Virus record (IMG/VR): IMGVR_UViG_3300037601_000088
Location: 32,001-96,000 of that record
Reading direction: 5' to 3' (one strand)
Length of the DNA stretch: 64,000 nt
DNA from: a virus
Lineage: Duplodnaviria; Caudoviricetes
Shown: piece by piece, positions 1,232 to 58,444 of the stretch
How positions within the stretch are numbered: position 1 is the first letter of the stretch
How the letters are laid out: each line of letters opens with the position of its first letter
Program-made: the position numbers and the translations under genes
The notes under the pieces: model-generated
What the model was told of the DNA's origin: nothing
What the model saw: the letters and a program-made list of their open reading frames with translations, nothing else
The model's database searches: none

Positions 1232-1796
1232 TAGTTTGGTCCGGGTCTGGCCATCTTGGATCATTGCGGAAGTCTTCAGCAATGACTGGATCATTGTCCT
1301 TCATATCAAAGCTCACAGCGTAGACCGCTTGAACGTAAGCCGCGCCTTTCGCCCACATCTCAATAAGCTGTGCATCGTTCAAGGTGTGCATTACGTTGTT
1401 ACCATCACGGAACTGCGTCGATGCACTAGGTGCTTGCTGAAGTTGCCGGAGCACTGCGCCGTCTTTCAAACCAGCAATATTGTCTTTATCCTTGGCGCGA
1501 CCCTGGACATAGATCGGAGCCGTAATGCCAGTCACGTTGATTGTTACGCCGTTTTCGATTAGTTGCTCGGCATAGGCCGTAACATCGTCCGTCGTAGGAG
1601 GGGGAGGCGGAGAAACATAAACATTTTCAACAGCCTCATCGGATATAATGGTCCAACCGGCATCGGCTTCAACTTCAGTCGTAGCGGAAGTACCTACAGG
1701 ATACCATTCGACATTTTTGTGTGGGATGTGTGGGGGGCGTTCAGGCAGCCTACGGGTACTTTGAAACTCACCGTTAATGAAGAGTGCGTACATCAT
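1224..1796 (-). CDS. DUF4376-like tail fibre assembly/accessory protein
   Basis: FRDGNNVMHTL..L..M pattern and C-terminal WP; ATG 1796 lies just after the upstream stop. Confidence 0.55.
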   Translation of the reverse strand: MMYALFINGEFQSTRRLPERPPHIPHKNVEWYPVGTSATTEVEADAGWTIISDEAVENVYVSPPPPPTTDDVTAYAEQLIENGVTINVTGITAPIYVQGRAKDKDNIAGLKDGAVLRQLQQAPSASTQFRDGNNVMHTLNDAQLIEMWAKGAAYVQAVYAVSFDMKDNDPVIAEDFRNDPRWPDPDQTNA

Positions 1797-1797
1797 A

Positions 1798-2649
1798 TCA
1801 GTCATCCGTTGCTGCGTTGGTGGTGTAGCGGATTTCGACGCCAAGCATTAATGCATCAGTAGCCAAAGTATCAGCTACACCGATTGGATATCTGTACAAA
1901 AGCAACATGAGCAGCTCGTCGCTGTCACCGGATGCGAGCGTCGGTGTAGCCCAAGGTGACATATGTATATCGTTAGCAGCAATCAGTGTGTCTGTGGAAG
2001 TGGCGTCTGCCTCTCTCGCTGTAACTGGGTCATCGTCAGCAAAACTTCTTCCACCCAACCACCATTCGACACCGCCCGATCCACTGGTTGCAGTCCAAAT
2101 AACTCGATACTCAAAAGGTGCCCCGTCCCATGACTTCGGCATTTTAACGGTCGCCCAACTGTACTCAGTAACAGTTGGATCAAACGCCAGTACAGGCGTC
2201 TCGAATGCACTTGCCACATTAGGCACTGACACCTCTGGGACAGGATTTGCTTCACCAAGTGCCCAAGCCCCAGCAGGTAGCCAGATCGTGTGCTTGCCAG
2301 TAACATTTGATAGTTCTAATTTATTTCCTAAATTTGTCTCAAGATCAGTAATTTTTGACTGTGCTAAAGTTGGAATTCTATCAGCATTAAAAGTGCCACT
2401 GGTAATTTTAGATGCAGCCAGACTGGGAATTCGGGCTGTAGCCAATGTACCTGCATTAATATCGTCAGCATTATGTGTATGAGATGTATTAGCTTTACCA
2501 CTAATATCACTGGTATGACCATCGGTTGTTACCTTAAGCGCATCCAATACAGTCGTTAAATCAAGACCAGTAAAATCACTAGCATTTGTGATATTGCTTG
2601 TAGAAAGATCTAATGGAAGAACTGGATTATTGCCAATATATTTTGTCAT
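1798..2649 (-). CDS. tail fibre protein with internal repeats and a beta-rich C-terminal domain
   Basis: KANTSHTH followed by repeats ADDINAGTLATARIPSL / AASKITSGTFNADRIPTL / AQSKITDL. Confidence 0.7.
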   Translation of the reverse strand: MTKYIGNNPVLPLDLSTSNITNASDFTGLDLTTVLDALKVTTDGHTSDISGKANTSHTHNADDINAGTLATARIPSLAASKITSGTFNADRIPTLAQSKITDLETNLGNKLELSNVTGKHTIWLPAGAWALGEANPVPEVSVPNVASAFETPVLAFDPTVTEYSWATVKMPKSWDGAPFEYRVIWTATSGSGGVEWWLGGRSFADDDPVTAREADATSTDTLIAANDIHMSPWATPTLASGDSDELLMLLLYRYPIGVADTLATDALMLGVEIRYTTNAATDD

Positions 2650-3113
2650 TAGAAGATCACCGCATAAACGATTGCTTGTTCAGTTGCTTCTTGAAGGGTT
2701 GCAAATCCTAGGCTATTCTTCATTCCAGTAATATCATTTTTTGTAACAGTATTTCCTGACATTGTTAAAAATTCTGTGGTTGTGTTTGACGATGCTGCGG
2801 CTGCAGTATAACTTATTGAATTAGCAACAACATTTTCTGCATTTAATGTGTCGGAAAATGTAGCATTAACTGAAAATGTTGTATTACTTGCAAATACTAT
2901 TGGCTGAGTATTACCAAATTCACCGCCATAAATCACATCAACATATAGGTCATTAATTGTCATTGTTCCATCAATGACAGTATTTCCTGATACCGTATTA
3001 GCATCTACGGTAACTATATTATTTTTTAGGGCGTCAAGAAGCTGGTTTGTTCTTGTGATTAATGTAGTAAAAGTATCTGTTGATATATCTACATTTGCGT
3101 AATTAAGACTCAT
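2649..3113 (-). CDS. virion structural protein (fibre/baseplate connector-like)
   Basis: N-terminal TDTFxxxxxRTN motif typical of T4-like fibre anchors; position in the structural operon. Confidence 0.5.
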   Translation of the reverse strand: MSLNYANVDISTDTFTTLITRTNQLLDALKNNIVTVDANTVSGNTVIDGTMTINDLYVDVIYGGEFGNTQPIVFASNTTFSVNATFSDTLNAENVVANSISYTAAAASSNTTTEFLTMSGNTVTKNDITGMKNSLGFATLQEATEQAIVYAVIF

Positions 3114-3291
3114 TAACCAGTTTTTCCAGTTTTTCTATTCTTTTTAAGGCTTTATTATATTTATCATTTAATTCTTTGATTTTTAGATCTAAAAATCTAT
3201 CTCTTTTTTTACGAGCTTTATAAAGCTTAAGAGAATTTTTATCGTTATTTAAAAGAGTCCCCTCTTTTTCTTTAATTAAACCTGTAGACAT
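3103..3291 (-). CDS. small basic coiled-coil hypothetical protein
   Basis: Overlaps the genes on both sides; typical position after the VrlC-like gene. Confidence 0.55.
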   Translation of the reverse strand: MSTGLIKEKEGTLLNNDKNSLKLYKARKKRDRFLDLKIKELNDKYNKALKRIEKLEKLVNES

Positions 3292-6200
3292 ATTGCTCTA
3301 GCATCTGTTAATCTTGGAACAATGAGTTTACTTTCAGAAAGAAGGACTACTTTAACCATAAATGATTTAAATCCGACAAAAATCCCGTCAGAAGTATCTT
3401 GATATTCTATGATATTAAAATTATTTTCATTTAAGAAAGCGCCATTCGTGACAGGGGCAGTTGAAGGAACACCATATACAAATTCTCTGAAGTCTTGAGG
3501 ATTCGCAGTAGAACTGAAAAGTGTTTCGCCTGAAGTATAGTTTAGTTTTGTCCATACTTTATCATCAATAGATTCACCATCTTCACCATTTAGAAATTTA
3601 ACATAAACCTCTATTTCTGTTGTAGGCGGTTTATATCCTCCGATATAAATTTGAATATCTTCAGCATCCTGACCGTCTTTAAGAGTTATTTGCGGAGAAA
3701 TATATTTGGTTAATGCATTACCATAGCGAGTATGTTCGTTTGTATTATCGTTATTAATAATATTTTCAATATGATATGAAGATTTACGAACCATATCAAT
3801 CATAGGTGAAACGTAATCATTTCCTGTATTTAAATCAATTTTATATGTTGATGATTTATTTCCAGACATTTCTGTCTCTTCATTTGACTTTGAGACAGCA
3901 ATTCTCATTTTATCGAAGAATTCATTTTCAGTTTCTTCTGTAACAGTTTCAAATGTTCCATCGATATTATATGAAGTATCAGTTCCCTTAAATCCAAAAG
4001 TTAATGAGGTAAATGAAGGAGAAAGTGTTGCAAACCTAGGAACAACCATAGAATATTGCTCATTATCAACGCTATCAATTGTCGCTGTTGCTACAAGAGT
4101 ATTTGCATTGATTACACTCTGGTTATTCATGAAAGGTCTATGAATTTGAATATCATCATTTGCGCTAAATCCGCCTGAAGACAAATCAAGTATAAGTTTA
4201 TCATTTGCGTCATCAACTAATTGAATATAACCAACTGGATCGGTATTTCCTGTTTGAGCTACCGCAGTTGAATTTGCAGTATAAACAATATCACCTGGGA
4301 GAGGGGAAATAGAGGAATTTGCTCTATTAATCCCGTCAACAGTGAAATAATCATCATCTTCGTTTTCGAAGTAGGCAGAACCAGTTCCAGTCGTAAAGAC
4401 TGCGCGATAGATATTAACTTTAGGATCTTCAGTCTGAATTGGTGTATATGTCATTTCATTTGCAGAAATAAAGGTTACACCCATGTAAGGATTTGAGAAA
4501 ACTTGTTGGCCTGTATTAATATCATTTTGCCCAATAGCACTCATCCAAATTGTATAGTTTGGAGAGTTACCGTCTGGCTTTACCTGATAACAATAATATT
4601 TGTTTGAAGCTAAAGGAACAATATTTTCAAAAGTAAAGATTGTTTCTACACTTGCATCTGTGGAAGTATTAATATCAGAGGCTTTTAAATGAGCCTTTGC
4701 TATAATTTTAGAACTATCTGGGAAATTATAGCTCATTTCCATAAGATAAACATTCATTCCAAGAGTTTCATCTTTATCTCTAAAATAAAGACCAATTTGA
4801 GGAATAAATAGAGTAGGAGATCCAGGCGAAACGGTTAAGAATGAATGAGCTAAGGGGTCACGACCGCCTTCATCCCCCGAATCTTCGTTTTGAATATTGA
4901 AATTATTTTGTGGCGGCGGAAACCATGTTGTTGTAGATCTAGAGTTAATACTAGTTGTTGTATTTGTCTCAATATTAGTTGCGGTTGAAATTGATGGCTC
5001 ACGTGTTGTGATATCAATATTCTGTGAAGTAACAGCTAAATTAGATGCGGTATAAATGGCCTTGGCTGACGATGTGGCCGCTTCTGGAGAAGTTACAATG
5101 TTATCCACGTTGGCGATAATAAATTCTCTGTCACCCACTCTGAATTCATTCTGAGGGATTCTAAATACACCATAAACATTACCGCTGGCATCAGATACAA
5201 TATCATCCCCGTAATCTCCTGTACGATTAATTATTTGATTTTCTTGGCCTTGAAGAAAATCATTTTGCCCTGACAATTCTCCAGGTGCTGAATGTTCAGA
5301 AACATTTACCTTATCGAAGAAAGTATAATATCTTGAATTTGGTTTTAAGCCGGTAACAGCAAAAGCAATAACGCGGCTACGAATATAAGGGTTTGAACTT
5401 ACGTCTTTTACGAAAGAACCTAGATTATATTCTCTGGAAGTTACATCAACCTGAAGGCCTTGATTTGTTCTTTGCTGTGTTGACGTAGTTCTAGTCGTAG
5501 TGGTTGTAGTTATACCCGCTCCAAAGTTATTAGTATTTCTTCCAATAACATCTGTCTGAGAAGCGGTTGTTCTCCAATCACCGAATGTCATAGCAAATGG
5601 TGTTTGTGCGAACTCTTCCCATGGGGTTGCCATATCAAGCTCAATATTAACGGCTGGGATTAGTTCTTCATCCCTGTGATGATCGAATTCAGGATAGAGA
5701 TTTAATTGACCATGCCATTTCCAAAAACTTTCAGTACAATTTCTTATTTTTGTTGCATAGGGCTGGGATGCCATAACAGCCGTTGTATAAGGCCGTGTAA
5801 TAATTGATCCAGTAACTTGAACACCAGAAGATAAACTTGTGCTATACTTATAATCTATTGTGTGTTTATCGAAAAATGGTCTTGCAACCGCATTAGTTTC
5901 ATCGATTGCTATTTTATATTCTACATCATTAACTCTACCAAGATTATGAGAAATAAAAGGATTAGCAAAAATACCACTTTTAAAGCGATCTAATCCGTTT
6001 TCATCCGGTATAGATAAATCTTTTGCGGATTGTTCTAATAAGTTAAGAGATGAATTATATTCAAGGGATGTAATTCTTCTATCAAGAACACCAATATCTC
6101 TCATGGTATATCCACGAGTTTTAAAGAGTTCTATTTTAGTTTTTATATCATTTCTTTTGTATGCTTCGCCTTCTCTTGTAGAAAGGGAAGGATAACCAGG

Positions 6201-9017
6201 AACCTGTACAGATGCAATTGTTAAAGAGTCTGGTGCTTTAATTGGTGTTCTTGGATTTTGTGAAGGAACACCTTGAGTAACATTAACATCGCCTTCTTTA
6301 GTTATTGATATTAAATCAATTCTAGGAAGATAGTATTCAACATCTGCCTGGAAATTTGTATCAGGCTCTACAAGATAGCTGCCTGTTCCAGTTATAATAA
6401 AGCTAGAATTTGCGATTGATGGGTTTACTGTAGCATTTGCAATTGATGTAGCACTATTCGCTGTATTGATTTTTTGCGGTCTAAAATCAACAAGATCCCT
6501 TACATCCTGCCCATTTAATGTTGGTATTTCACCAATTTCAATGTTTGTAGAATTTGAAGTATCTTCTGGGCCACGAATTGGGTAAGAATCAACGCTAAAG
6601 AAACCTATACCGGCGGCAGTGCTCGCCTCAAAATGATTCAATTTAACAAGAATTCTGGTGGACGACGTTATTTTATCCGCATAGATAGGATTTATAATTA
6701 GTTTTGCATGGCCATATTGTGTTGTGGTTTGTCCTGAATCAAGAATAAACCAAGACTTTCTGTCAGGATTTGTTTCAAGGTAATCAGTTCCAACATAAAC
6801 AGCGCTAAGTTTCGTAACGTCTGCAATGCCAAGATTGTACGGTCCAGTCGTACCAGCAGTAGAGCAATCAATTTTAACATATCTATCTTTCCTGATATTT
6901 TTTGTTTTTGCTGTAGCTTGAGTTCTAAGAACAGGATATGTTGCATAAACAGATTGTGTTCCTGAATCAAAAACATCAACATCGGTATCGACAGTAAATT
7001 GAGTATTACTTAAAACTTCAACTGTATTATTGGCGTTAGTTAAATCAAATATGTGACCCTGTGGGAAATATCTTTGATAAGTTACTGAAGAACCAGTTGT
7101 ATTTGCATTAACTGAAAGAGATGTACTATTTGCTATTGCTGTAATTCTACGAACATCTGCCGTTGAAGGAATACGTATATAATCACCGGCAGAAAAATCT
7201 GTATCAAAGGAAGTACCAGAACCAGTTGCAGTATTTCCTGAAAAAGTAATTGTTCCTGCCTGATTTGCGGAATATGCTTCCTGTGATAAAGCAATATCAT
7301 AACGAAGTTCATTAACTTCTGATAATACACCAACAGAATTATTTAGTCTATGAGAACCACCTGCATGAGGAGTATTAATTGTAACAGTTATTTGGCCATT
7401 AGCAGTTAAAGTAGCAGTTGTTCTATCTCTATAAACAAATTGAGTATCATTGACTCCGTTTAAATCAGTTAATCTTTTAATGCTTGTTAAGCCAGTGTCA
7501 AAAATTAATGAATTTAAAGAAGTATCCTTTAAGACAGCTTTGCTATTTTCTAATACTATATCAGCCTTAGCATGGCCGAAATCACCATTTTTGTAGATGG
7601 ATTTAACATCCTGGCTGAATGATTTACCAGAATTCATTTTAATATTAAAAAGATATAAGCGATATGTACAATCAGGAGTACCCTTAGTGCCTGAACTATA
7701 AATTATAGCTCTAACGTTTGCAGTACCTACGATTGATCCTGAAGGGGCTGCACCAGAACCTTCAACTTCCGATAAACAATTTTGGGCAGCATCATAAAGA
7801 TTAACTTCTCCAAAATCATCTGCATCAAAAGTACCAGCAACCTCATTCACGAATACATAATTACCGTAATTTGCCGTAACGATTTGTGCCTGAGATTCAG
7901 CAGTTTGTGTGGCGCGCGGTACTTCTACATCTTTAGTAGAAAGAAATTCTACTCTGTTTCCTTTAATATATGCAATACCAGAACCGACTTGATAAGTTAG
8001 TAATTCATTATTGGCATTTACTAGTGTTTCGACTGGGAAAGGCTTTTTTGTATAATCGCCAGACTCTTCAAATGTTCTTTTATTAATTTCATCACCGAGA
8101 CGATCATATGAAGCATCATTATGTTGTTCAACAACAGTGAAATCATTAAATTCTGCTACAGCAAAGAAAGAAGAATCTGCTGGAAGAGTTGTTCTATCAT
8201 AAGCTTTTAGAACTGGAGTTAATTTAAGCCTATCAGCTCCTGGAGCAGTGTTGTTTGGTTGGCCATTACTATTATCATATAGTTTTTCATCCTGAAGTGC
8301 AGTGATAATATCTTCATCTGTTTCAAACCCAATTATATAATTGGTTGTATTTGCATCATATTTTTTAACAACAGCGGTTTGTCTATCAACATTAATGTAA
8401 AAACCTTTCTGATAGATAATACCATCAGAACAAGTAACAGTATAACCACCACCTGTTGTTGAAGTTTCGGCGTTGGCAGTATAAGCAGATATTGTATCTA
8501 CTACATTATTAGCATCAAGAGTACCAAGTTTTGATTGATTATTACTATAAAGAGTAAGTGTTTCACCTGATATAAATTCGGTTATTTCATTGTTCGCTTC
8601 ATCATAACCAGACGAAATATAATTTACATAAACAACATTCGTATCAGGATATGTTGATTCATAACCTTTAACATTGAGAACTGGAACAGCTCTGACACCA
8701 TTATTAGATACGAGGATTGTATCTTCGCCAATTATATCTATTGTTGCTACTGTATTCGAATCAAACGTATTGTCTAAGCGAACAAATCTTTGATTTGAAT
8801 TATATGTAAGAGCAACACCATCAACAACAGAACCATCTTTAAATATATGGTCTGATATCTTACCTATTTGATTTTGAGAAATAGATTGTATTTCATTTAA
8901 TTCTCTTGTCTGTACAGAAACAGATGGTTTAAATAAAACTTTATTATAGTTATTCTCATCATCAAAGTCATTATAATAAGGAGACTGAGAAAGATCTGTT
9001 GTTAATTTAGTTGTCAT
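3276..9017 (-). CDS. VrlC-like (DUF4815) large virion/baseplate structural protein
   Basis: SPYYNDFD..VLFKP..VQTRELNEIQS, APGADRLK, RTFEESGDY and DRFKSGIF motifs; 1913 aa. Confidence 0.85.
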   Translation of the reverse strand: MTTKLTTDLSQSPYYNDFDDENNYNKVLFKPSVSVQTRELNEIQSISQNQIGKISDHIFKDGSVVDGVALTYNSNQRFVRLDNTFDSNTVATIDIIGEDTILVSNNGVRAVPVLNVKGYESTYPDTNVVYVNYISSGYDEANNEITEFISGETLTLYSNNQSKLGTLDANNVVDTISAYTANAETSTTGGGYTVTCSDGIIYQKGFYINVDRQTAVVKKYDANTTNYIIGFETDEDIITALQDEKLYDNSNGQPNNTAPGADRLKLTPVLKAYDRTTLPADSSFFAVAEFNDFTVVEQHNDASYDRLGDEINKRTFEESGDYTKKPFPVETLVNANNELLTYQVGSGIAYIKGNRVEFLSTKDVEVPRATQTAESQAQIVTANYGNYVFVNEVAGTFDADDFGEVNLYDAAQNCLSEVEGSGAAPSGSIVGTANVRAIIYSSGTKGTPDCTYRLYLFNIKMNSGKSFSQDVKSIYKNGDFGHAKADIVLENSKAVLKDTSLNSLIFDTGLTSIKRLTDLNGVNDTQFVYRDRTTATLTANGQITVTINTPHAGGSHRLNNSVGVLSEVNELRYDIALSQEAYSANQAGTITFSGNTATGSGTSFDTDFSAGDYIRIPSTADVRRITAIANSTSLSVNANTTGSSVTYQRYFPQGHIFDLTNANNTVEVLSNTQFTVDTDVDVFDSGTQSVYATYPVLRTQATAKTKNIRKDRYVKIDCSTAGTTGPYNLGIADVTKLSAVYVGTDYLETNPDRKSWFILDSGQTTTQYGHAKLIINPIYADKITSSTRILVKLNHFEASTAAGIGFFSVDSYPIRGPEDTSNSTNIEIGEIPTLNGQDVRDLVDFRPQKINTANSATSIANATVNPSIANSSFIITGTGSYLVEPDTNFQADVEYYLPRIDLISITKEGDVNVTQGVPSQNPRTPIKAPDSLTIASVQVPGYPSLSTREGEAYKRNDIKTKIELFKTRGYTMRDIGVLDRRITSLEYNSSLNLLEQSAKDLSIPDENGLDRFKSGIFANPFISHNLGRVNDVEYKIAIDETNAVARPFFDKHTIDYKYSTSLSSGVQVTGSIITRPYTTAVMASQPYATKIRNCTESFWKWHGQLNLYPEFDHHRDEELIPAVNIELDMATPWEEFAQTPFAMTFGDWRTTASQTDVIGRNTNNFGAGITTTTTTRTTSTQQRTNQGLQVDVTSREYNLGSFVKDVSSNPYIRSRVIAFAVTGLKPNSRYYTFFDKVNVSEHSAPGELSGQNDFLQGQENQIINRTGDYGDDIVSDASGNVYGVFRIPQNEFRVGDREFIIANVDNIVTSPEAATSSAKAIYTASNLAVTSQNIDITTREPSISTATNIETNTTTSINSRSTTTWFPPPQNNFNIQNEDSGDEGGRDPLAHSFLTVSPGSPTLFIPQIGLYFRDKDETLGMNVYLMEMSYNFPDSSKIIAKAHLKASDINTSTDASVETIFTFENIVPLASNKYYCYQVKPDGNSPNYTIWMSAIGQNDINTGQQVFSNPYMGVTFISANEMTYTPIQTEDPKVNIYRAVFTTGTGSAYFENEDDDYFTVDGINRANSSISPLPGDIVYTANSTAVAQTGNTDPVGYIQLVDDANDKLILDLSSGGFSANDDIQIHRPFMNNQSVINANTLVATATIDSVDNEQYSMVVPRFATLSPSFTSLTFGFKGTDTSYNIDGTFETVTEETENEFFDKMRIAVSKSNEETEMSGNKSSTYKIDLNTGNDYVSPMIDMVRKSSYHIENIINNDNTNEHTRYGNALTKYISPQITLKDGQDAEDIQIYIGGYKPPTTEIEVYVKFLNGEDGESIDDKVWTKLNYTSGETLFSSTANPQDFREFVYGVPSTAPVTNGAFLNENNFNIIEYQDTSDGIFVGFKSFMVKVVLLSESKLIVPRLTDARAICLQV

Positions 9018-13769: not shown

Positions 13770-13799
13770 GTTTACAAACACATTTTTTTGCGGTATAAA
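13770..13799 (+). promoter_or_regulatory. early sigma70-type promoter
   Basis: GTTTACA-17 nt-TATAAA, like T4 early promoters. Confidence 0.75.
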
Positions 13800-14629: not shown

Positions 14630-14659
14630 GTTTACTTCTGTTATTTTTTAATGTATAAA
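14630..14659 (+). promoter_or_regulatory. early sigma70-type promoter
   Basis: GTTTACT-17 nt-TATAAA. Confidence 0.7.
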
Positions 14660-29683: not shown

Positions 29684-31690
29684 ATGGAAAATTCAGTAAG
29701 CATAGCACGTCAACAAAGAGAAGAACAAGAACAAGAATCACTTATGGAGAGGTTAAACTCTTCAATAGGCGGTGTTTCTGACAGTAATATATCTGTTAAA
29801 AATGAGTTGAGTAAACTTGTAGAAAAAACAAAACAAGCCTCTATTCAAAATGATTCTATAAATCTCATAAATCAAAATGATTATGCAACCAAATTTTCTA
29901 TGTTTAATGCAAGAGAATTATCAGATGCAATTGAAGGTGCTTTAAGTAAAGCATTAATTCAATCGCAGCCTCCACCAATACCTATACCTTTACCAATCAC
30001 AATTGAAAGAGAAAGTGATTTCTCTAGAGATTCGACCTTGGAAGATATAAAAAATGGGTTAGAGAAAGAACCATCAATCTATTCTAATATAAAAGATGGA
30101 TTAAATGCTGCAGTAACTCAGCTCAAGCAGGTTGGTGATTATCTAATACAAAGTAAAGATTTTCTATTTAGTTCCATGGGCATTGAACAAGATACTCTTG
30201 ATGCTATCCGTGAACAAAATGAAAGATATGCCTCTCAATTTTTAAGGGATGATGCAGAAGAAGATAGAAAATTAACGATATTTAATGTCATCGGTGAAAA
30301 GCTAAAAGAAAATCTAAAAGAAGCCTTTGAAGATCTTGATATACATTTTGATGGAAGGGTGTCAAATACGTATAGAGTTTTTGGTGGTTTATTCGGCTTC
30401 CTGGGAGCATTGACAAGTGCTCTTATGCCTTTTATGGGCATTATAGCCGGTGGTGCAATCGTTGCAGTCCTTGTTTCTTCTTTTGAATTTTTTACCGAAT
30501 TTGAAAGGACTGGCAGAGCTTTTCAGCAATTATTAGATGGTGGATTTTTAAATGCTATTCCTAATTTGATTAATTTATTTGGTGCGGTCGGTGAAGATCT
30601 TGGAAACATGGTTCAGACAACTGAAAGATTTGATAGATTAGTCTCAGCAATCGGAGATATTTTTACAAACCATCTCTTTCCTGCGATGGAATACTTATTT
30701 AATCTTTTATCAGAAATGGTTGTATCTTTATCCGATTATCTTCAGGGAGAAGGCGGTCAAAAGTTAACTGATTCTTTAATATCTTTTTCTTATTTTGTTA
30801 CAGATGTATTGATCTTTTTCTTTGAGTCTGTATTACCTCCTATATTAGATACGATAGGATTTGCTTTCAGAACAGCAGAAACAGCAATAAGAGCAACGAC
30901 TCCTGCGTTTGTTTTCATTTTTACAGAAATGTTGCCGGGGCTTTTGAGGGGTATTGAAAGACAATTTACCGCTATAGGCGACTATATACAAAATATAATC
31001 GATGATTTTGCGGCAATATTTAATTCAGAAAATCCTATTCAATTTGCTAACAGCTTTACAAATGTTTCTGTTTCTCTATCTGGATTTGTTCTATCAACGA
31101 TTGATAATATACTTTCAACCATAATGGATGTGTTTGCAATCGATGATTTACTTGGGGTAGAGGATGGAACTTTGGTTTCTGAAATGTTATCAGATTTATT
31201 TTCAAGCTTATCTGAAAAATTTATTGATTTTGTTTCTAATGTAAGAGATGCCTTTGTAGAAAAGATAGATGAAATAACAGATTACATTATGAGTTTGGAT
31301 CCTTTAGAATTAATAATTGATAAAATACAAATGTTTGTTAATTCTATTGTAGATCTTATTCCAACACCCGCTGACATTTTAAATGGTATTAGAGGGTTTG
31401 TTACCGATATACCATTGATACCAGATGCTGTCAGGGATAGGTTATTAGGAGTGGGTACAGTTCAAGCTTCTGAGATACAATCTCCAGCCACGGTTGTTCC
31501 TGGTGCAATTCGTGAAATACAAGCAAGAGAAGAATTAACGCGTGAGCTTAATATGATCATCAATACTCCGCAAACTCAAGTCCAGCCTAGACAAACTCCA
31601 GGTATTTCCAGACCTTCAGGAGTTCCTAGAACTTCGCCAAACATGACACCATCTGATAGAGTTCTTTATGGATTTGGTGAATTAAGATAA
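29684..31690 (+). CDS. tape-measure-like (gp29-like) protein
   Basis: 668 aa helical protein with hydrophobic G/A-rich segment and amphipathic repeats; late promoter. Confidence 0.55.
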   Translation: MENSVSIARQQREEQEQESLMERLNSSIGGVSDSNISVKNELSKLVEKTKQASIQNDSINLINQNDYATKFSMFNARELSDAIEGALSKALIQSQPPPIPIPLPITIERESDFSRDSTLEDIKNGLEKEPSIYSNIKDGLNAAVTQLKQVGDYLIQSKDFLFSSMGIEQDTLDAIREQNERYASQFLRDDAEEDRKLTIFNVIGEKLKENLKEAFEDLDIHFDGRVSNTYRVFGGLFGFLGALTSALMPFMGIIAGGAIVAVLVSSFEFFTEFERTGRAFQQLLDGGFLNAIPNLINLFGAVGEDLGNMVQTTERFDRLVSAIGDIFTNHLFPAMEYLFNLLSEMVVSLSDYLQGEGGQKLTDSLISFSYFVTDVLIFFFESVLPPILDTIGFAFRTAETAIRATTPAFVFIFTEMLPGLLRGIERQFTAIGDYIQNIIDDFAAIFNSENPIQFANSFTNVSVSLSGFVLSTIDNILSTIMDVFAIDDLLGVEDGTLVSEMLSDLFSSLSEKFIDFVSNVRDAFVEKIDEITDYIMSLDPLELIIDKIQMFVNSIVDLIPTPADILNGIRGFVTDIPLIPDAVRDRLLGVGTVQASEIQSPATVVPGAIREIQAREELTRELNMIINTPQTQVQPRQTPGISRPSGVPRTSPNMTPSDRVLYGFGELR

Positions 31691-31691
31691 T

Positions 31692-31734
31692 AAAAAACGC
31701 CGCGTTTGAAATAACATAATCCAAACGCGGCGTT
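31692..31734 (-). terminator. intrinsic terminator (probably bidirectional)
   Basis: 13-bp GC-rich stem 31696-31708/31722-31734 with a U-tract on the minus strand. Confidence 0.8.
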
Positions 31735-31971
31735 CTTCATGTATTTAAGGTAAATACATAACCTGAAGAACTTTGGCATCTTACATTCTTCCTTTAAGGC
31801 CCATCTACAACCTTAAACACTTCGAATAAGAACTACTGTGGCAGATCACAGTTGCTTACAGGAACCACCAAGTAAACTTTAAGATAATTTAGGTGGTTGT
31901 GAAAAATATACGTACTATTTTTCCCTAAATTATCTTTTGGATGGATATCAGTTCTTAATTACCCAACCAAT
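31692..31971 (-). ncRNA. candidate structured ncRNA B (about 280 nt)
   Basis: Own promoter, at least six stems plus terminator; no ORF. Confidence 0.6.
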
Positions 31972-31977
31972 AATTTA

Positions 31978-32007
31978 TATATACATCGATTCTTCTTATA
32001 TGTAAAC
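31978..32007 (-). promoter_or_regulatory. early promoter GTTTACA-17-TATATA
   Basis: Same class as the promoters at 13770 and 14630. Confidence 0.7.
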
Positions 32008-32012
32008 AGCCT

Positions 32013-32065
32013 TAAGTGTCATATTTGACTCTTAATTTATCATTAACAACCAAATATGACACTTA
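32013..32065. repeat. 15-bp perfect inverted repeat
   Basis: TAAGTGTCATATTTG 32013-32027 / CAAATATGACACTTA 32051-32065. Confidence 0.85.
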
Positions 32066-32068
32066 GTG

Positions 32069-32214
32069 TTACTGCACATTTCTGGAAAGCACCAGAGATT
32101 ATTCCTGATATCTCCCAACCTTTACCGCGCTATGATCAACTCGCATCAGCTCAAGTATGTCACTTTCGAAGGGTGTGAATCGCTTTTCACCAGCTCTCCA
32201 GAAATGTGCAGTAA
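32069..32214 (-). ncRNA. candidate structured ncRNA A (about 146 nt, 22-bp closing stem)
   Basis: 18-bp perfect terminal inverted repeat extended by a G-U pair only on the minus strand; begins at the predicted TSS. Confidence 0.7.
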
Positions 32215-32217
32215 TTT

Positions 32218-32247
32218 TTTATACACAAAGTAAAAGCTTATGTAAAC
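32218..32247 (-). promoter_or_regulatory. early promoter GTTTACA-17-TATAAA
   Basis: Same class; predicted TSS near 32212. Confidence 0.72.
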
Positions 32248-32379
32248 CTTTTTTATGCGTAATATTTTGGTGGCTCGGGATCAATCCACCAATTATCATT
32301 TTCAGCAGGCCTAAAAAGAAAAGGCCTGAGACTATATCGAAAATTTTTAATATAACCTTTTGAATAAATAATAACCATT

Positions 32380-33783
32380 TTATACCTCTGCTTTCTTGCG
32401 AATTTCATCAAAGTATGAGAAAATATTGAATTTACCGTTTGTAAAAACAGGCTTCAATAAATTACCGCTATACTTTTCAATCTGAGCAAAATCATTTCTC
32501 GTGTAAGGTTCAAATTTATTACTCACAGACTGAATACCCGCTTTAGATACTTTTTTAGTATCTGTCACTGGTTTCTTATAAACAGGAAGAATTTCATCTC
32601 CTATTTTGATAGCACATGCTTTCATTGCGTAACCAAGACTATCACGATTTACTTTTTGCAATAATCCTGCACCCATACCGAAGGCAATATTATCTGCAGA
32701 CCATCCATTTTTTCGATAGTTTTCTAGAATATTGCCAATTGAATGAATATTCACGCCATCACCTTGAATGATACGAACATTATTTAAAACTTTAAATCCT
32801 TTGGTATTAAGAGTATAACCAAAACGTTTACCTAAAATTTCAATAACATCCAATGTAACATCAATTGGATCTCCAGAATCTGGCCGAATAACAAGAGTTG
32901 CCTGAGAATCAATAATCTTTTGTTTTAAATGTGTCCCCCATAATTCATCACATGCTCGGTAAATATCATAAGAATCTGATACACAAGCAAGTAATGCCTC
33001 AGGTTTTGCAAACTGATTTAACATATTATCAAAAGCATCAATTTCTTTATCAGGACCACCCCATGCAGTGATTGTACTATGTTCAGATGCAGGGATAGAG
33101 AATCCTGTAGAATTAATGCCGGCGCCATAATTTTCCCTAAGATATATCAGGGAAGTTAAAGTGTCAGTCCCCATAAAATTAATTAAATGAGCACCACCAC
33201 CAATTCGGGCCTGTTCTTCAGAGGTTGTTCCACGCGCACCAAAATCATGAAGTTTGAATGGAAGCCCATCTAAATTATCAGCGGTCATTTCGAGATAACC
33301 TTTGATAATTTTTTTAACTTCACGAGATAGTGTCGCCACGGTTGAAGGATACCAAACAGCTCGTAGAATAACGGTTTCCAAGAAGCTTGTTAACCAAAAG
33401 CATTTTGGATCAGTGTTATAGACTTGAACCTGCGGTACACCTACAGGAAAAACTGTTCCTTCTGGAAGAGCCTCAATTACAATAGGAAGTCTTCCTTCGT
33501 GAACATTTAGAATATATTCCCAACCTTCACGATTGAATGGTACACCATGAGCTTTACAAACAAGATCAGCTTGATTGATCTTTTGTTGAGTAACAACTTG
33601 ACCGACCAAATAATTCCTTATAAAAGCCTGAAGGCCGAAGTTGACAATTTCATCCGTGTAATTCATTTCAGCTGAGGTATAGCGAGGCTCAATATATGAA
33701 TACACTGTCTCGGTTTTTGGCGGATATTGAAGATAGTGGCTGTGTTTATAGCTATCAGCCATTAAGAGTAAATTATTTTCCAT
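32380..33783 (-). CDS. nadV: nicotinamide phosphoribosyltransferase (NAMPT)
   Basis: DSYKHSH, WYPSTVAT, LHDFGARG, PASEHS, VSDSYD, IRPDSGDP and IIQGDG motifs. Confidence 0.95.
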   Translation of the reverse strand: MENNLLLMADSYKHSHYLQYPPKTETVYSYIEPRYTSAEMNYTDEIVNFGLQAFIRNYLVGQVVTQQKINQADLVCKAHGVPFNREGWEYILNVHEGRLPIVIEALPEGTVFPVGVPQVQVYNTDPKCFWLTSFLETVILRAVWYPSTVATLSREVKKIIKGYLEMTADNLDGLPFKLHDFGARGTTSEEQARIGGGAHLINFMGTDTLTSLIYLRENYGAGINSTGFSIPASEHSTITAWGGPDKEIDAFDNMLNQFAKPEALLACVSDSYDIYRACDELWGTHLKQKIIDSQATLVIRPDSGDPIDVTLDVIEILGKRFGYTLNTKGFKVLNNVRIIQGDGVNIHSIGNILENYRKNGWSADNIAFGMGAGLLQKVNRDSLGYAMKACAIKIGDEILPVYKKPVTDTKKVSKAGIQSVSNKFEPYTRNDFAQIEKYSGNLLKPVFTNGKFNIFSYFDEIRKKAEV

Positions 33784-34151: not shown

Positions 34152-35240
34152 TTAAACTCCTAGCATATCTTTGACAATAAAATAATGATCCTCAAACATT
34201 TTTTTAGGATTCAATTCATTTAATGGTACCCATTTTGCTTTGTCAGCATCGTCAGAACCCCTAACTTTTGGTAGTGAAGTTTGAGCCGGCAAACTAATCA
34301 AAAAAGCCTGAGTAATTAACCTACCACGAGCAGACCTATGTGGATCATCATAAGTTTTACTTTCTTTAATTGATCCACGAAGAACAGCTTCAGGTACCTT
34401 AAGTTTTGTTTCTTCCTTAAGTTCTCGGATAGCGGCATCTTCTAATTTTTCGTATTCATGAATAAAACCTCCAGGAAGGGCCCAAATGCCTTTGCCTGGT
34501 TCTGACCTTCTACGAACAAGAAGAATATGACCAGATTGAACAACAACAGCATCAACGGTATGTTCAATACGAGGATATTTACTTACACCTTTTTTATAAA
34601 CTTCAATAAATTCTTGTTCAGTTTTTAGCTTCGTATATGTTTCTGTTTTTTGAAATTTTTTAAGAAACTCCAAAGAATCATTAGAAAGAAAATTATTTAA
34701 AGCATTTTGTGCGGTATGAGTTCCGGTTTCAGGATCCCAACTAGGATTTATTGCTCCATAACTCCAATAAAGTTCTCTAAGATCAGTAGCATTAATTGGA
34801 TCTAAAAATTCTACAGATTCATTTCCCCATGTAGGGAATAATTTGAGATAATAACTAGTATGATCCTTTGCGCAACCAATAAGACCAATCTTATCATTTT
34901 CGTTAGTTTCGTTATCAACCAACTCACGAACTTCTTCAATCCAACTATTATCATTATATGTATGATCATTAAGAGGGAGAATTACTAATGAGTTATCAAC
35001 ATCATATTGACAACTAAATTCACCTTGTTGGTGATCATATAAACCATATGTTCGTTGAATCATATGTTTACGTTCTTCAAACGTAAAAGGATTACGCATG
35101 CTCCTGCCAGAATTAGCAGAACCAATGAGAACAATTACTTTTTTAGAAAGTTCGAGAGCACGGTCAATTACGCGCTTATGGCCATTATGAAATGGCTGGA
35201 ATCTCCCTATGAAAACTAGGGCATCATACTTATAAGTCAT
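34152..35240 (-). CDS. nadM: bifunctional NMN adenylyltransferase / Nudix ADP-ribose pyrophosphatase (NadM-Nudix)
   Basis: GRFQPFHNGH, NPFTFEER, Nudix box LPGGF..AAIRELKEET and FEDH motifs. Confidence 0.93.
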   Translation of the reverse strand: MTYKYDALVFIGRFQPFHNGHKRVIDRALELSKKVIVLIGSANSGRSMRNPFTFEERKHMIQRTYGLYDHQQGEFSCQYDVDNSLVILPLNDHTYNDNSWIEEVRELVDNETNENDKIGLIGCAKDHTSYYLKLFPTWGNESVEFLDPINATDLRELYWSYGAINPSWDPETGTHTAQNALNNFLSNDSLEFLKKFQKTETYTKLKTEQEFIEVYKKGVSKYPRIEHTVDAVVVQSGHILLVRRRSEPGKGIWALPGGFIHEYEKLEDAAIRELKEETKLKVPEAVLRGSIKESKTYDDPHRSARGRLITQAFLISLPAQTSLPKVRGSDDADKAKWVPLNELNPKKMFEDHYFIVKDMLGV

Positions 35241-47902: not shown

Positions 47903-47976
47903 TGGTGACTTCAATCAGAATCGAACTGATATCTTTCGATTTAGAATCGACTATAATACCATTATACTATAAAACC
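47903..47976 (-). tRNA. amber suppressor tRNA (CTA anticodon)
   Basis: 74-nt cloverleaf; anticodon arm GTCGA-TTCTAAA-TCGAA, T arm ATCAG-TTCGATT-CTGAT, CCA end. Confidence 0.8.
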
Positions 47977-57771: not shown

Positions 57772-57789
57772 ATTTTTACAATTCGCGTT

Positions 57790-58396
57790 TTTAGATCCTA
57801 TTCAACTTATCAAGACGTAATCTCACACAAGTAAAAAAAGAATTAATTTAATCTTAAAATAGATATAACACGTAAAACATAATAAAGGATCTAAATTATT
57901 CTCTGAAAAAATTAATCAGTGAGAACTGTCCTTTAATAACGTATCCATATGACGGTACGTCACTCTATCTGAATCCTTCTATACCTCAGCTGCCGATTTT
58001 CCGCTGGCCAAACGTCCCACCCCTTTTTACTAAAAGAGAAAAAATTTTTAAATGTGATAAATTAGCTGAGTTACTTTTATGCTCTATAGAGAAGAAACAT
58101 AAAACGGTCGCCTAGCCGAAAGGAAACCATAGTTTGGAGACTGGTAAACTATCAAACCCGCTCAACATTTTATTAGATCTAGACAGACCCGAATAGAGAA
58201 ATGTATTCGTAAAAACTATTCTTTTTATTTAAAAAATTTCTTTTTCTCTTTAAATAAAGCGGGAACCTCCGAGCAGACCTTTAATTTAAAGAAATAAGTG
58301 TTACCTTTTTAAACCTAATTTTTAGCAGTTAAAAGTTTCAGTTATCTGGATTACTCTTCTATCACTATGATAGAAATTGCTTGTCTTATTAGTCAA
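57790..58396 (-). ncRNA. candidate large structured RNA (about 600 nt) or R-loop origin transcript
   Basis: ORF-free 670-bp gap with own promoter and at least nine stems. Confidence 0.6.
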
Positions 58397-58402
58397 TTTT
58401 TC

Positions 58403-58432
58403 TATATAAGATATAAAAATATATTTGTAAAC
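58403..58432 (-). promoter_or_regulatory. early promoter GTTTACA-17-TATATA
   Basis: Same class as the other early promoters. Confidence 0.65.
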
Positions 58433-58444
58433 ACTAAAAATGAA

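Follow-up and report, generated by a model that had tools for sequence, protein, structure and literature searches.

The stretch of DNA analysed here, referred to as the window, comprises 64,000 nucleotides and spans bases 32001-96000 of an IMG/VR virus record that is 147,252 bp long, has a GC content of 32% and is an estimated 85% complete. Judged by its baseplate wedge protein, the nearest isolated phages are those of Rhizobium, Caulobacter and Stenotrophomonas together with T4-like cyanophages; as this protein is at most 37% identical to the counterparts in isolated phages, the virus is a deep-branching T4-type myovirus. Two tRNA genes are found on the minus strand of the window, at 47903-47976 and 47583-47658. 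One has a CUA anticodon, which reads amber (ARAGORN label tRNA-Pyl; Rfam tRNA score 56 bits), and the second is a tRNA-Ile(GAU); in a T4-like phage, an amber-suppressor tRNA points to recoding or to read-through of stop codons.

The element under study is located in a 689-bp gap between two convergent genes, which encode a tape-measure-like tail protein and NAMPT, respectively (Table 1). NAMPT and the fused NMNAT-Nudix enzyme make up what we take to be an NARP2-type NAD+ reconstitution pair, a known anti-defence module. The conserved 41-aa ORF at the upstream edge of the insert has no Pfam match; the corresponding ORF of a related contig shares 60% identity with it, and two other assemblies annotate it as a gene. 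The Trp-Trp and Pro-Pro codons of this ORF make up a hairpin, TTGGTGG/CCACCAA, which the counterpart in the relative keeps with other bases (CAATGG/CCATTG).

Table 1. Features of the locus and its neighbours. Positions are those of the window; promoters, start site, helices and terminator are predictions.
Feature	Position	Strand	Description
668-aa tape-measure-like tail protein	29684-31690	+	Convergent neighbour of the gap
Intrinsic terminator	31692-31740	-	GC-rich 13-bp stem, then U6; overlaps the stop of the convergent 668-aa gene
Insert (ORF-free)	32252-31741	-	About 510 nt; order: P1, stem-closed 146-nt segment, I1, P2, about 235 nt of hairpins
Second ORF-free structured module	31741-31977	-	Perfect 13-bp stem 31881-93/31924-36; hairpin 31835-52
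Promoter P2	31978-32006	-	TTTACA, 17-nt spacer, TATATA; 240 bp downstream of P1
Hairpin I1	32013-32065	-	15 bp perfect; 18+5 bp with two G-U pairs on the minus strand
3' arm of closing helix	32069-32090	-	
102-nt interior	32091-32192	-	GC 0.45; poorly defined fold
5' arm of closing helix	32193-32214	-	Contains GGAG
Predicted transcription start	32211-32212	-	6-7 nt past the -10 hexamer; predicted from the sequence
Promoter P1	32218-32246	-	TTTACA, 17-nt spacer, TATAAA (32223-32218), preceded by G
41-aa ORF	32253-32378	-	Begins right after the NAMPT stop; upstream edge of the insert
NAMPT	32380-33783	-	Other neighbour of the gap; follows the NMNAT-Nudix gene
NMNAT-Nudix (fused)	34152-35240	-	

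The only known relative is a 31.8-kb JGI contig (L092), which is syntenic on both flanks, with identities of 72% for NAMPT and 48% for the tail protein. Between the stop codon of its small ORF and its tail gene, L092 holds a terminator hairpin and nothing else. With orthologous flanks on either side and the terminator alone between them in the relative, the approximately 510 nt are either an insert specific to the phage or a segment that has been deleted in L092. Four other assemblies of the same phage are 100% identical over the locus and have it in the same orientation. At 1714-6383, L092 encodes a larger NAD module with NADAR, a PnuC-type NMN transporter, an AAA_28 protein and an RNA ligase.

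The minus strand of the insert contains no ORF of at least 30 aa between 31780 and 32252, and no ORF of at least 40 aa is found within 400 nt of either of its two promoters, P1 and P2. Both promoters are typical members of a phage-wide class, (G)TTTACA-N16-(G)TATAAA. A relaxed pattern, TTTACW-N16-18-TATAWW, occurs at 15 sites in the genome, compared with a mean of 4.3 (maximum 9) in 100 shuffles; about ten of the 15 sites are intergenic, and of ten class sites examined, seven have a good Shine-Dalgarno sequence and an ATG 17-99 nt further on. The class motif, P1 and P2 match the consensus TTTACW-N17-TAYWAT of the T4/PST early promoters in promoter-early stem-loop (PeSL) elements (PMC4122927), and the class is consistent with T4 early promoters having been described as sigma-70 promoters of very high strength (PMC2988021). 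A generic promoter scan did not call P1 because its -10 hexamer ends in A rather than T. P1 begins 6 nt past the stop codon of the 41-aa ORF and places the predicted +1 2-3 nt inside one arm of a long inverted repeat, in agreement with the initial annotation, which had proposed a start near 32212 that coincides with this arm; the 5' end of the transcript is therefore predicted to be fully paired.

Promoters of this class mostly precede small plus-strand genes, and examples in the window include 13771-13799 (+), 14631-14659 (+) and 58431-58403 (-). Behind the last of these lies a third ORF-poor stretch of about 670 nt (57772-58444, minus strand), situated between a gene for a 484-aa helicase-like protein and an RNase H gene. 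It contains no ORF of at least 40 aa and an A/T-rich long-range inverted repeat (58021-43/58241-63) and, unlike the insert, is not significantly structured (z = -1.3).

The inverted repeat itself, described initially as 18 bp extended to 22 bp through a G-U pair possible only on the minus strand, was recovered by a repeat search as two 22-nt arms that are complementary at 21 of 22 positions (95%) and separated by 102 nt. The perfect core of 18 bp (32069-86/32197-214) is the longest perfect inverted repeat in the 147-kb genome at spacers of up to 400 nt, and none of 40 first-order Markov shuffles of the genome reached this length (maximum 17, once). The sole mismatch opposes 32087 A and 32196 C on the plus strand, whereas the minus strand can form G-U there. 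The repeat is thus real and statistically exceptional, more than chance would provide. Relative to its shuffles, a 166-nt segment that contains it has folding z-scores of -4.85 (minus strand) and -6.33 (plus strand). When the transcript is folded from its predicted 5' end, 19 of the 20 pairs of the closing helix have a pair probability of at least 0.99, and the terminal pair reaches 0.89.

The domain closed by this helix has a different character. The higher GC content reported for the interior was borne out (0.45 compared with 0.32 for the genome; a GC content of 0.48 is reached by only 2.7% of the 102-nt windows of the genome), and on the RNA strand the interior is rich in G (29 G and 17 C). 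Two small hairpins had been proposed within it, GUGAA/UUCAC and GAGAU/AUCUC. Both are present in the minimum free energy fold, but the interior taken alone is no more structured than its shuffles, with z-scores of +1.16 (minus strand) and -0.18 (plus strand), 179 of 200 shuffles that fold at least as well and a mean paired probability of 0.53, and the small hairpins are therefore at chance level. A promoter scan found no promoter-like site in the interior. A 15-nt identity between the interior and genome positions 135652-135666 was judged a chance match because the latter is inside a coding frame.

Three nucleotides past the closing helix, and directly upstream of the -35 element of P2, begins the hairpin I1, the 15-bp hairpin that had been noticed after the repeat and that proved to be real. 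I1 is the joint second-longest perfect inverted repeat in the genome (one of three of 15 bp) and has folding z-scores of -7.58 (minus strand) and -6.68 (plus strand). Its GC content is 0.245, it has no U-tract and is followed by AGGCUGUUUAC, and a terminator scan did not call it; as its stem is not GC-rich and the U-tract is lacking, I1 was rejected as an intrinsic terminator of the 146-nt RNA. The terminator that closes the whole unit is found just beyond the insert, at a position shared with L092, whose terminator differs. The discrete 146-nt RNA of the initial annotation therefore has no terminator of its own and would need to be excised from a transcript of about 520 nt that ends at 31695-31740. 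Folded as a minus-strand RNA of 523 nt, the whole unit reaches a minimum free energy of -178.9 kcal/mol, compared with -117.1 +/- 6.0 kcal/mol in shuffles (z = -10.4), and the locus is the most structured one in the genome on this strand.

Inverted repeats give rise to structure on both strands, and the whole unit also folds well on the plus strand (z = -9.8), as is expected of any set of inverted repeats. The bias between the strands is more informative. In the two large helices, each of the three positions that depart from Watson-Crick pairing forms G-U on the minus strand; G-U pairs across the insert number 21 in the minus fold and five in the plus fold, and among strand-specific pairs stacked on helices shared by both folds there are 11 on the minus and four on the plus strand. 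In a scan of the whole genome in GC-corrected 160-nt windows, six of the 11 strongest minus-strand outliers fall within 31601-32160, as opposed to none of the 15 strongest plus-strand outliers, and the second structured module supplies most of the top minus-strand outliers. The higher G content of the minus strand contributes to these figures, so that the bias supports the minus strand and is not decisive. Together with the two promoters and the terminator, it favours the minus-strand orientation, which had been proposed at the outset and which we retain as the probable one. The strongest plus-strand outliers of the same scan are at genome positions 2241, 8961, 201-281 and 108921, outside the window or at its edge, and may represent terminators or additional structured RNAs.

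The element is a singleton. At the Rfam gathering score it has no match to any family, in keeping with its initial description as undescribed; with E values of up to 10, nothing covers the stem-closed segment, ribozymes, 6S, Y RNA and tRNA-like families included, and the flanking hairpins and edges attract chance-level matches to miRNA, snoRNA and sRNA families. ARAGORN reports the two distant tRNAs only, and the element is not tRNA-like. The homologue search that had been proposed covered IMG/VR, GTDB genomes, JGI metagenomes and plasmids, and yielded no homologue. A blastn search of the locus against phages and plasmids gave no match. An exact-pattern scan of IMG/VR for the arms gave four single-arm chance matches, at least three of them in apparent coding sequence, and the same scan of JGI metagenomes gave three more single-arm chance matches; two interior 19-mers, scanned in IMG/VR, gave chance matches or none. 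Across 185,579 GTDB species genomes, one for each species, the arm scan returned a single 12-mer coincidence. This match, in a Dictyobacter MAG, consists of 12-mer arms with unrelated flanks and interior; about 0.1 such matches are expected by chance, and it was dismissed. A covariance model built from the single sequence of the element and searched against 76 NAMPT-bearing viral loci, the L092 locus and the whole phage genome finds the element alone.

The flanking proteins offer another route to an orthologous copy, and none was found along it: relatives of NAMPT are at most 72% identical, and a search of 5.8 billion proteins returned one homologue of the 668-aa tail protein. The initial annotation had also allowed that the repeats might be termini of a mobile element present at other loci; within the phage genome the arms occur only at this locus, and the other sequence sets gave only the chance matches described above. 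A near-perfect repeat without diverged copies is equally compatible with selection for an RNA helix and with a young inverted duplication.

On balance, the element is probably a non-coding RNA. The initial proposal of a phage ncRNA agrees with the lack of an ORF, of an Rfam family and of a second copy, whereas its transcription, start site and processing, as well as any function, are what we infer from promoters and predicted folds. The specific version that we favour, tentatively and at somewhat less than even strength, is an early minus-strand non-coding RNA with its 5' end locked in a helix long enough for RNase III. According to this model, a host RNA polymerase of the sigma-70 type would start at about A32212 from P1, and the first 20 nt of the transcript would pair with 32071-32090 as soon as those bases are made. 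The resulting uninterrupted helix of 20-22 bp would bury the 5' end and close a 102-nt, G-rich and loosely folded domain, and I1, a second long duplex of 23 bp, would follow 3 nt later. Transcription would continue through P2 and the second structured module to the terminator at 31695-31740, and the primary transcript of about 520 nt would most likely be processed into, or stabilised as, discrete structured RNAs. RNase III-type enzymes need about two helical turns of duplex. An uninterrupted double-stranded RNA of at least about 20 bp is predicted in silico for the closing helix (20-22 bp), and I1 offers 18+5 bp; as both duplexes reach the length for RNase III, processing or strong stabilisation would be expected. 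The 5'-terminal helix would in addition shield the RNA from decay that depends on the 5' end, and the cassette as a whole could be seen as an accessory insert between the NAD-salvage operon (NAMPT/NMNAT-Nudix) and the tail module.

Several observations weigh against this reading. The interior is unstructured, so that all of the signal comes from the repeat, for which a feature of the DNA itself or an inverted duplication of recent date would account equally well; the fold of the plus strand is nearly as significant (z = -6.3 for the element, -9.8 for the unit); the -10 hexamer of P1 ends in A, not T, and the generic scan makes no call; the searches gave no homologue and hence no sign of selection on the fold; and the four other assemblies, being identical, add nothing. 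A more far-reaching proposal, which we regard as speculative and improbable, is that the ORF-less cassette is a counter-defence or host-takeover RNA module acquired beside the NAD+ genes, an RNA analogue of ORFan cargo, in which the duplexes and the G-rich loop could titrate or act as a decoy for a host nuclease or an RNA-sensing immune protein.

A rival reading is that the repeat is a neutral accident at the level of DNA, such as a recent inverted duplication or template switch in a fast-evolving accessory intergenic insert, which may be transcribed without any selection on the helix. The match of 21 out of 22 is what a young duplication would leave, the structure of the interior does not exceed chance, the insert is absent from the sole relative, and the homologue searches reveal no conservation. 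On this account, however, it would be fortuitous that the longest and the joint second-longest perfect repeats of the genome occur 3 nt apart and directly behind a class-typical promoter, that the predicted start sits at the base of the helix, that all three imperfections are transitions which preserve pairing on the same strand, and that the remainder of the insert is exceptionally structured as well; we consider such an accident unlikely, if not implausible. It is less easy still to regard the 146-bp segment as a MITE or the remnant of one, with the 22-bp arms as terminal inverted repeats and TA as a possible target duplication. Its size, its terminal repeats and its GC content of 0.45 in a genome of 0.32 would suit a foreign insert, and the arms, read as CTGCAC...GTGCAG, leave TA on either side; yet a TA duplication is indistinguishable from an extension of the palindrome, the segment occurs once in the phage, with chance arm matches only in IMG/VR, GTDB and JGI data and none in plasmids, and no transposase was seen near the element, the searches of the whole record having covered reverse transcriptase and the serine and tyrosine recombinase families. 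A MITE is for these reasons an improbable explanation.

Other readings assign the locus a role in replication, recombination or plus-strand transcription. P1 could be a replication-origin or primer promoter, with an untranslated early RNA that stays in place as an R-loop, as at T4 oriE, oriF and oriG, and with the repeat as part of the origin architecture. The presence of two strong early-type promoters with no ORF behind either, the G-richness of the RNA (29 G and 17 C in the interior) and the position of the locus among late tail genes, where T4 oriE is likewise found, are in line with this idea. Nevertheless, no iterons or direct repeats were found at the locus, the stretch just downstream of P1 is, rather than an AT-rich unwinding element, the GC-richest of the insert, R-loop formation would face competition from a very stable intramolecular helix, and the locus is absent from L092, all of which makes an origin rather improbable. 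The chances of an inverton, whose 102-bp interior would be flipped between the 22-bp repeats by a recombinase of the host or the phage, are slighter again: repeats of about 20 bp around some 100 bp beside a promoter do have the geometry of small invertons, but neither a serine (PF00239) nor a tyrosine (PF00589) recombinase is encoded in the 147-kb record, the four independent, identical assemblies all show one orientation, and the interior has no promoter-like site.

It is just as hard to argue for a plus-strand feature, be it a long-range hairpin with T6 that ends read-through of the 668-aa tail gene or a small ORF of 40 or 55 aa. The plus-strand fold (z = -6.3), the TTTTTT after the 3' arm on that strand and the open frames at 32056-32178 and 32066-32233 would fit such a feature. 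However, the T-run is fully accounted for by the -10 element and discriminator of the minus-strand promoter, a loop of 102 nt is atypical of an intrinsic terminator, the mismatch is an A-C opposition on the plus strand, and the ORFs have no Shine-Dalgarno sequence and no real homologues among 1.84 billion representatives; we give this reading very little weight. Four weak multi-stretch matches of the 55-aa ORF to repeat proteins of unrelated families were rejected as artefacts.

The preferred reading, an early structured non-coding transcript, can be compared with several known systems. The initial annotation had likened the layout to the a1/a2-closed RNA of retrons, and there is a formal resemblance to msr-msd RNAs in that the promoter-proximal 5' arm pairs with a distal 3' arm in the manner of a1 and a2, with a transcript predicted to start at the arm. 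Beyond this, the analogy fails. The absence of a reverse transcriptase, noted initially for the window, extends to the whole 147-kb record at its 85% completeness (no match to PF00078, in a search whose controls gave matches), and the element is also devoid of an effector gene, of Rfam or other homology and of a stable msd-type hairpin in its interior. There is also a likeness to the RNase III stalks of rRNA precursors and of T7 early mRNA, where a duplex of about two turns encloses or flanks an RNA for its release. T7-type RNase III sites usually carry an internal loop, however, and the predicted helix of the element is uninterrupted. Untranslated structured phage RNAs of 120-140 nt in a T4-type genome also call to mind T4 rnaC and rnaD. 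The T4 RNAs, however, are encoded in a tRNA cluster, and rnaC ends in a tRNA-like T-arm, whereas the element is 15 kb away from the two tRNAs of the phage, has its own promoter and contains no tRNA-like part; without sequence similarity or other resemblance, it was rejected as a counterpart of rnaC/rnaD.

In form, the cassette comes closest to the PeSL cassettes, by which accessory genes are shuffled among T4-type phages (Arbiol et al. 2010, PMC2839356; see also Comeau et al. 2014, PMC4122927). Shared features are a strong, sigma-70-like early promoter, drawn from a class that recurs in the phage and combined with a stem-loop, the position of I1 just upstream of the -35 element of P2, which is one of the PeSL arrangements described, and the location at a variable accessory junction, which the cassette occupies in one phage but not in its relative. 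The differences are no less clear. The last part of a PeSL is a Shine-Dalgarno sequence with the start codon of an ORFan, whereas no ORF follows P1 or P2; PeSL stem-loops are far smaller than the stems of the element (22 bp around a 102-nt interior, and 23 bp); and the stem-loop is not repeated in the genome, where the other promoters of the class have no comparable structure. Measured against a PeSL motif of about 100 bp, I1 does adjoin P2, but the 22-bp helix spans 146 nt. The cassette is therefore likened to a PeSL with an RNA structure as its putative cargo and is not filed as a member, because the downstream Shine-Dalgarno sequence and start codon are missing. Transcription and processing in the manner proposed would mean that the cargo of promoter/stem-loop cassettes in T4-type phages is not limited to orphan proteins and can be RNA alone, and the locus would then be a candidate RNA effector beside the known anti-defence module of NAMPT and NMNAT-Nudix.
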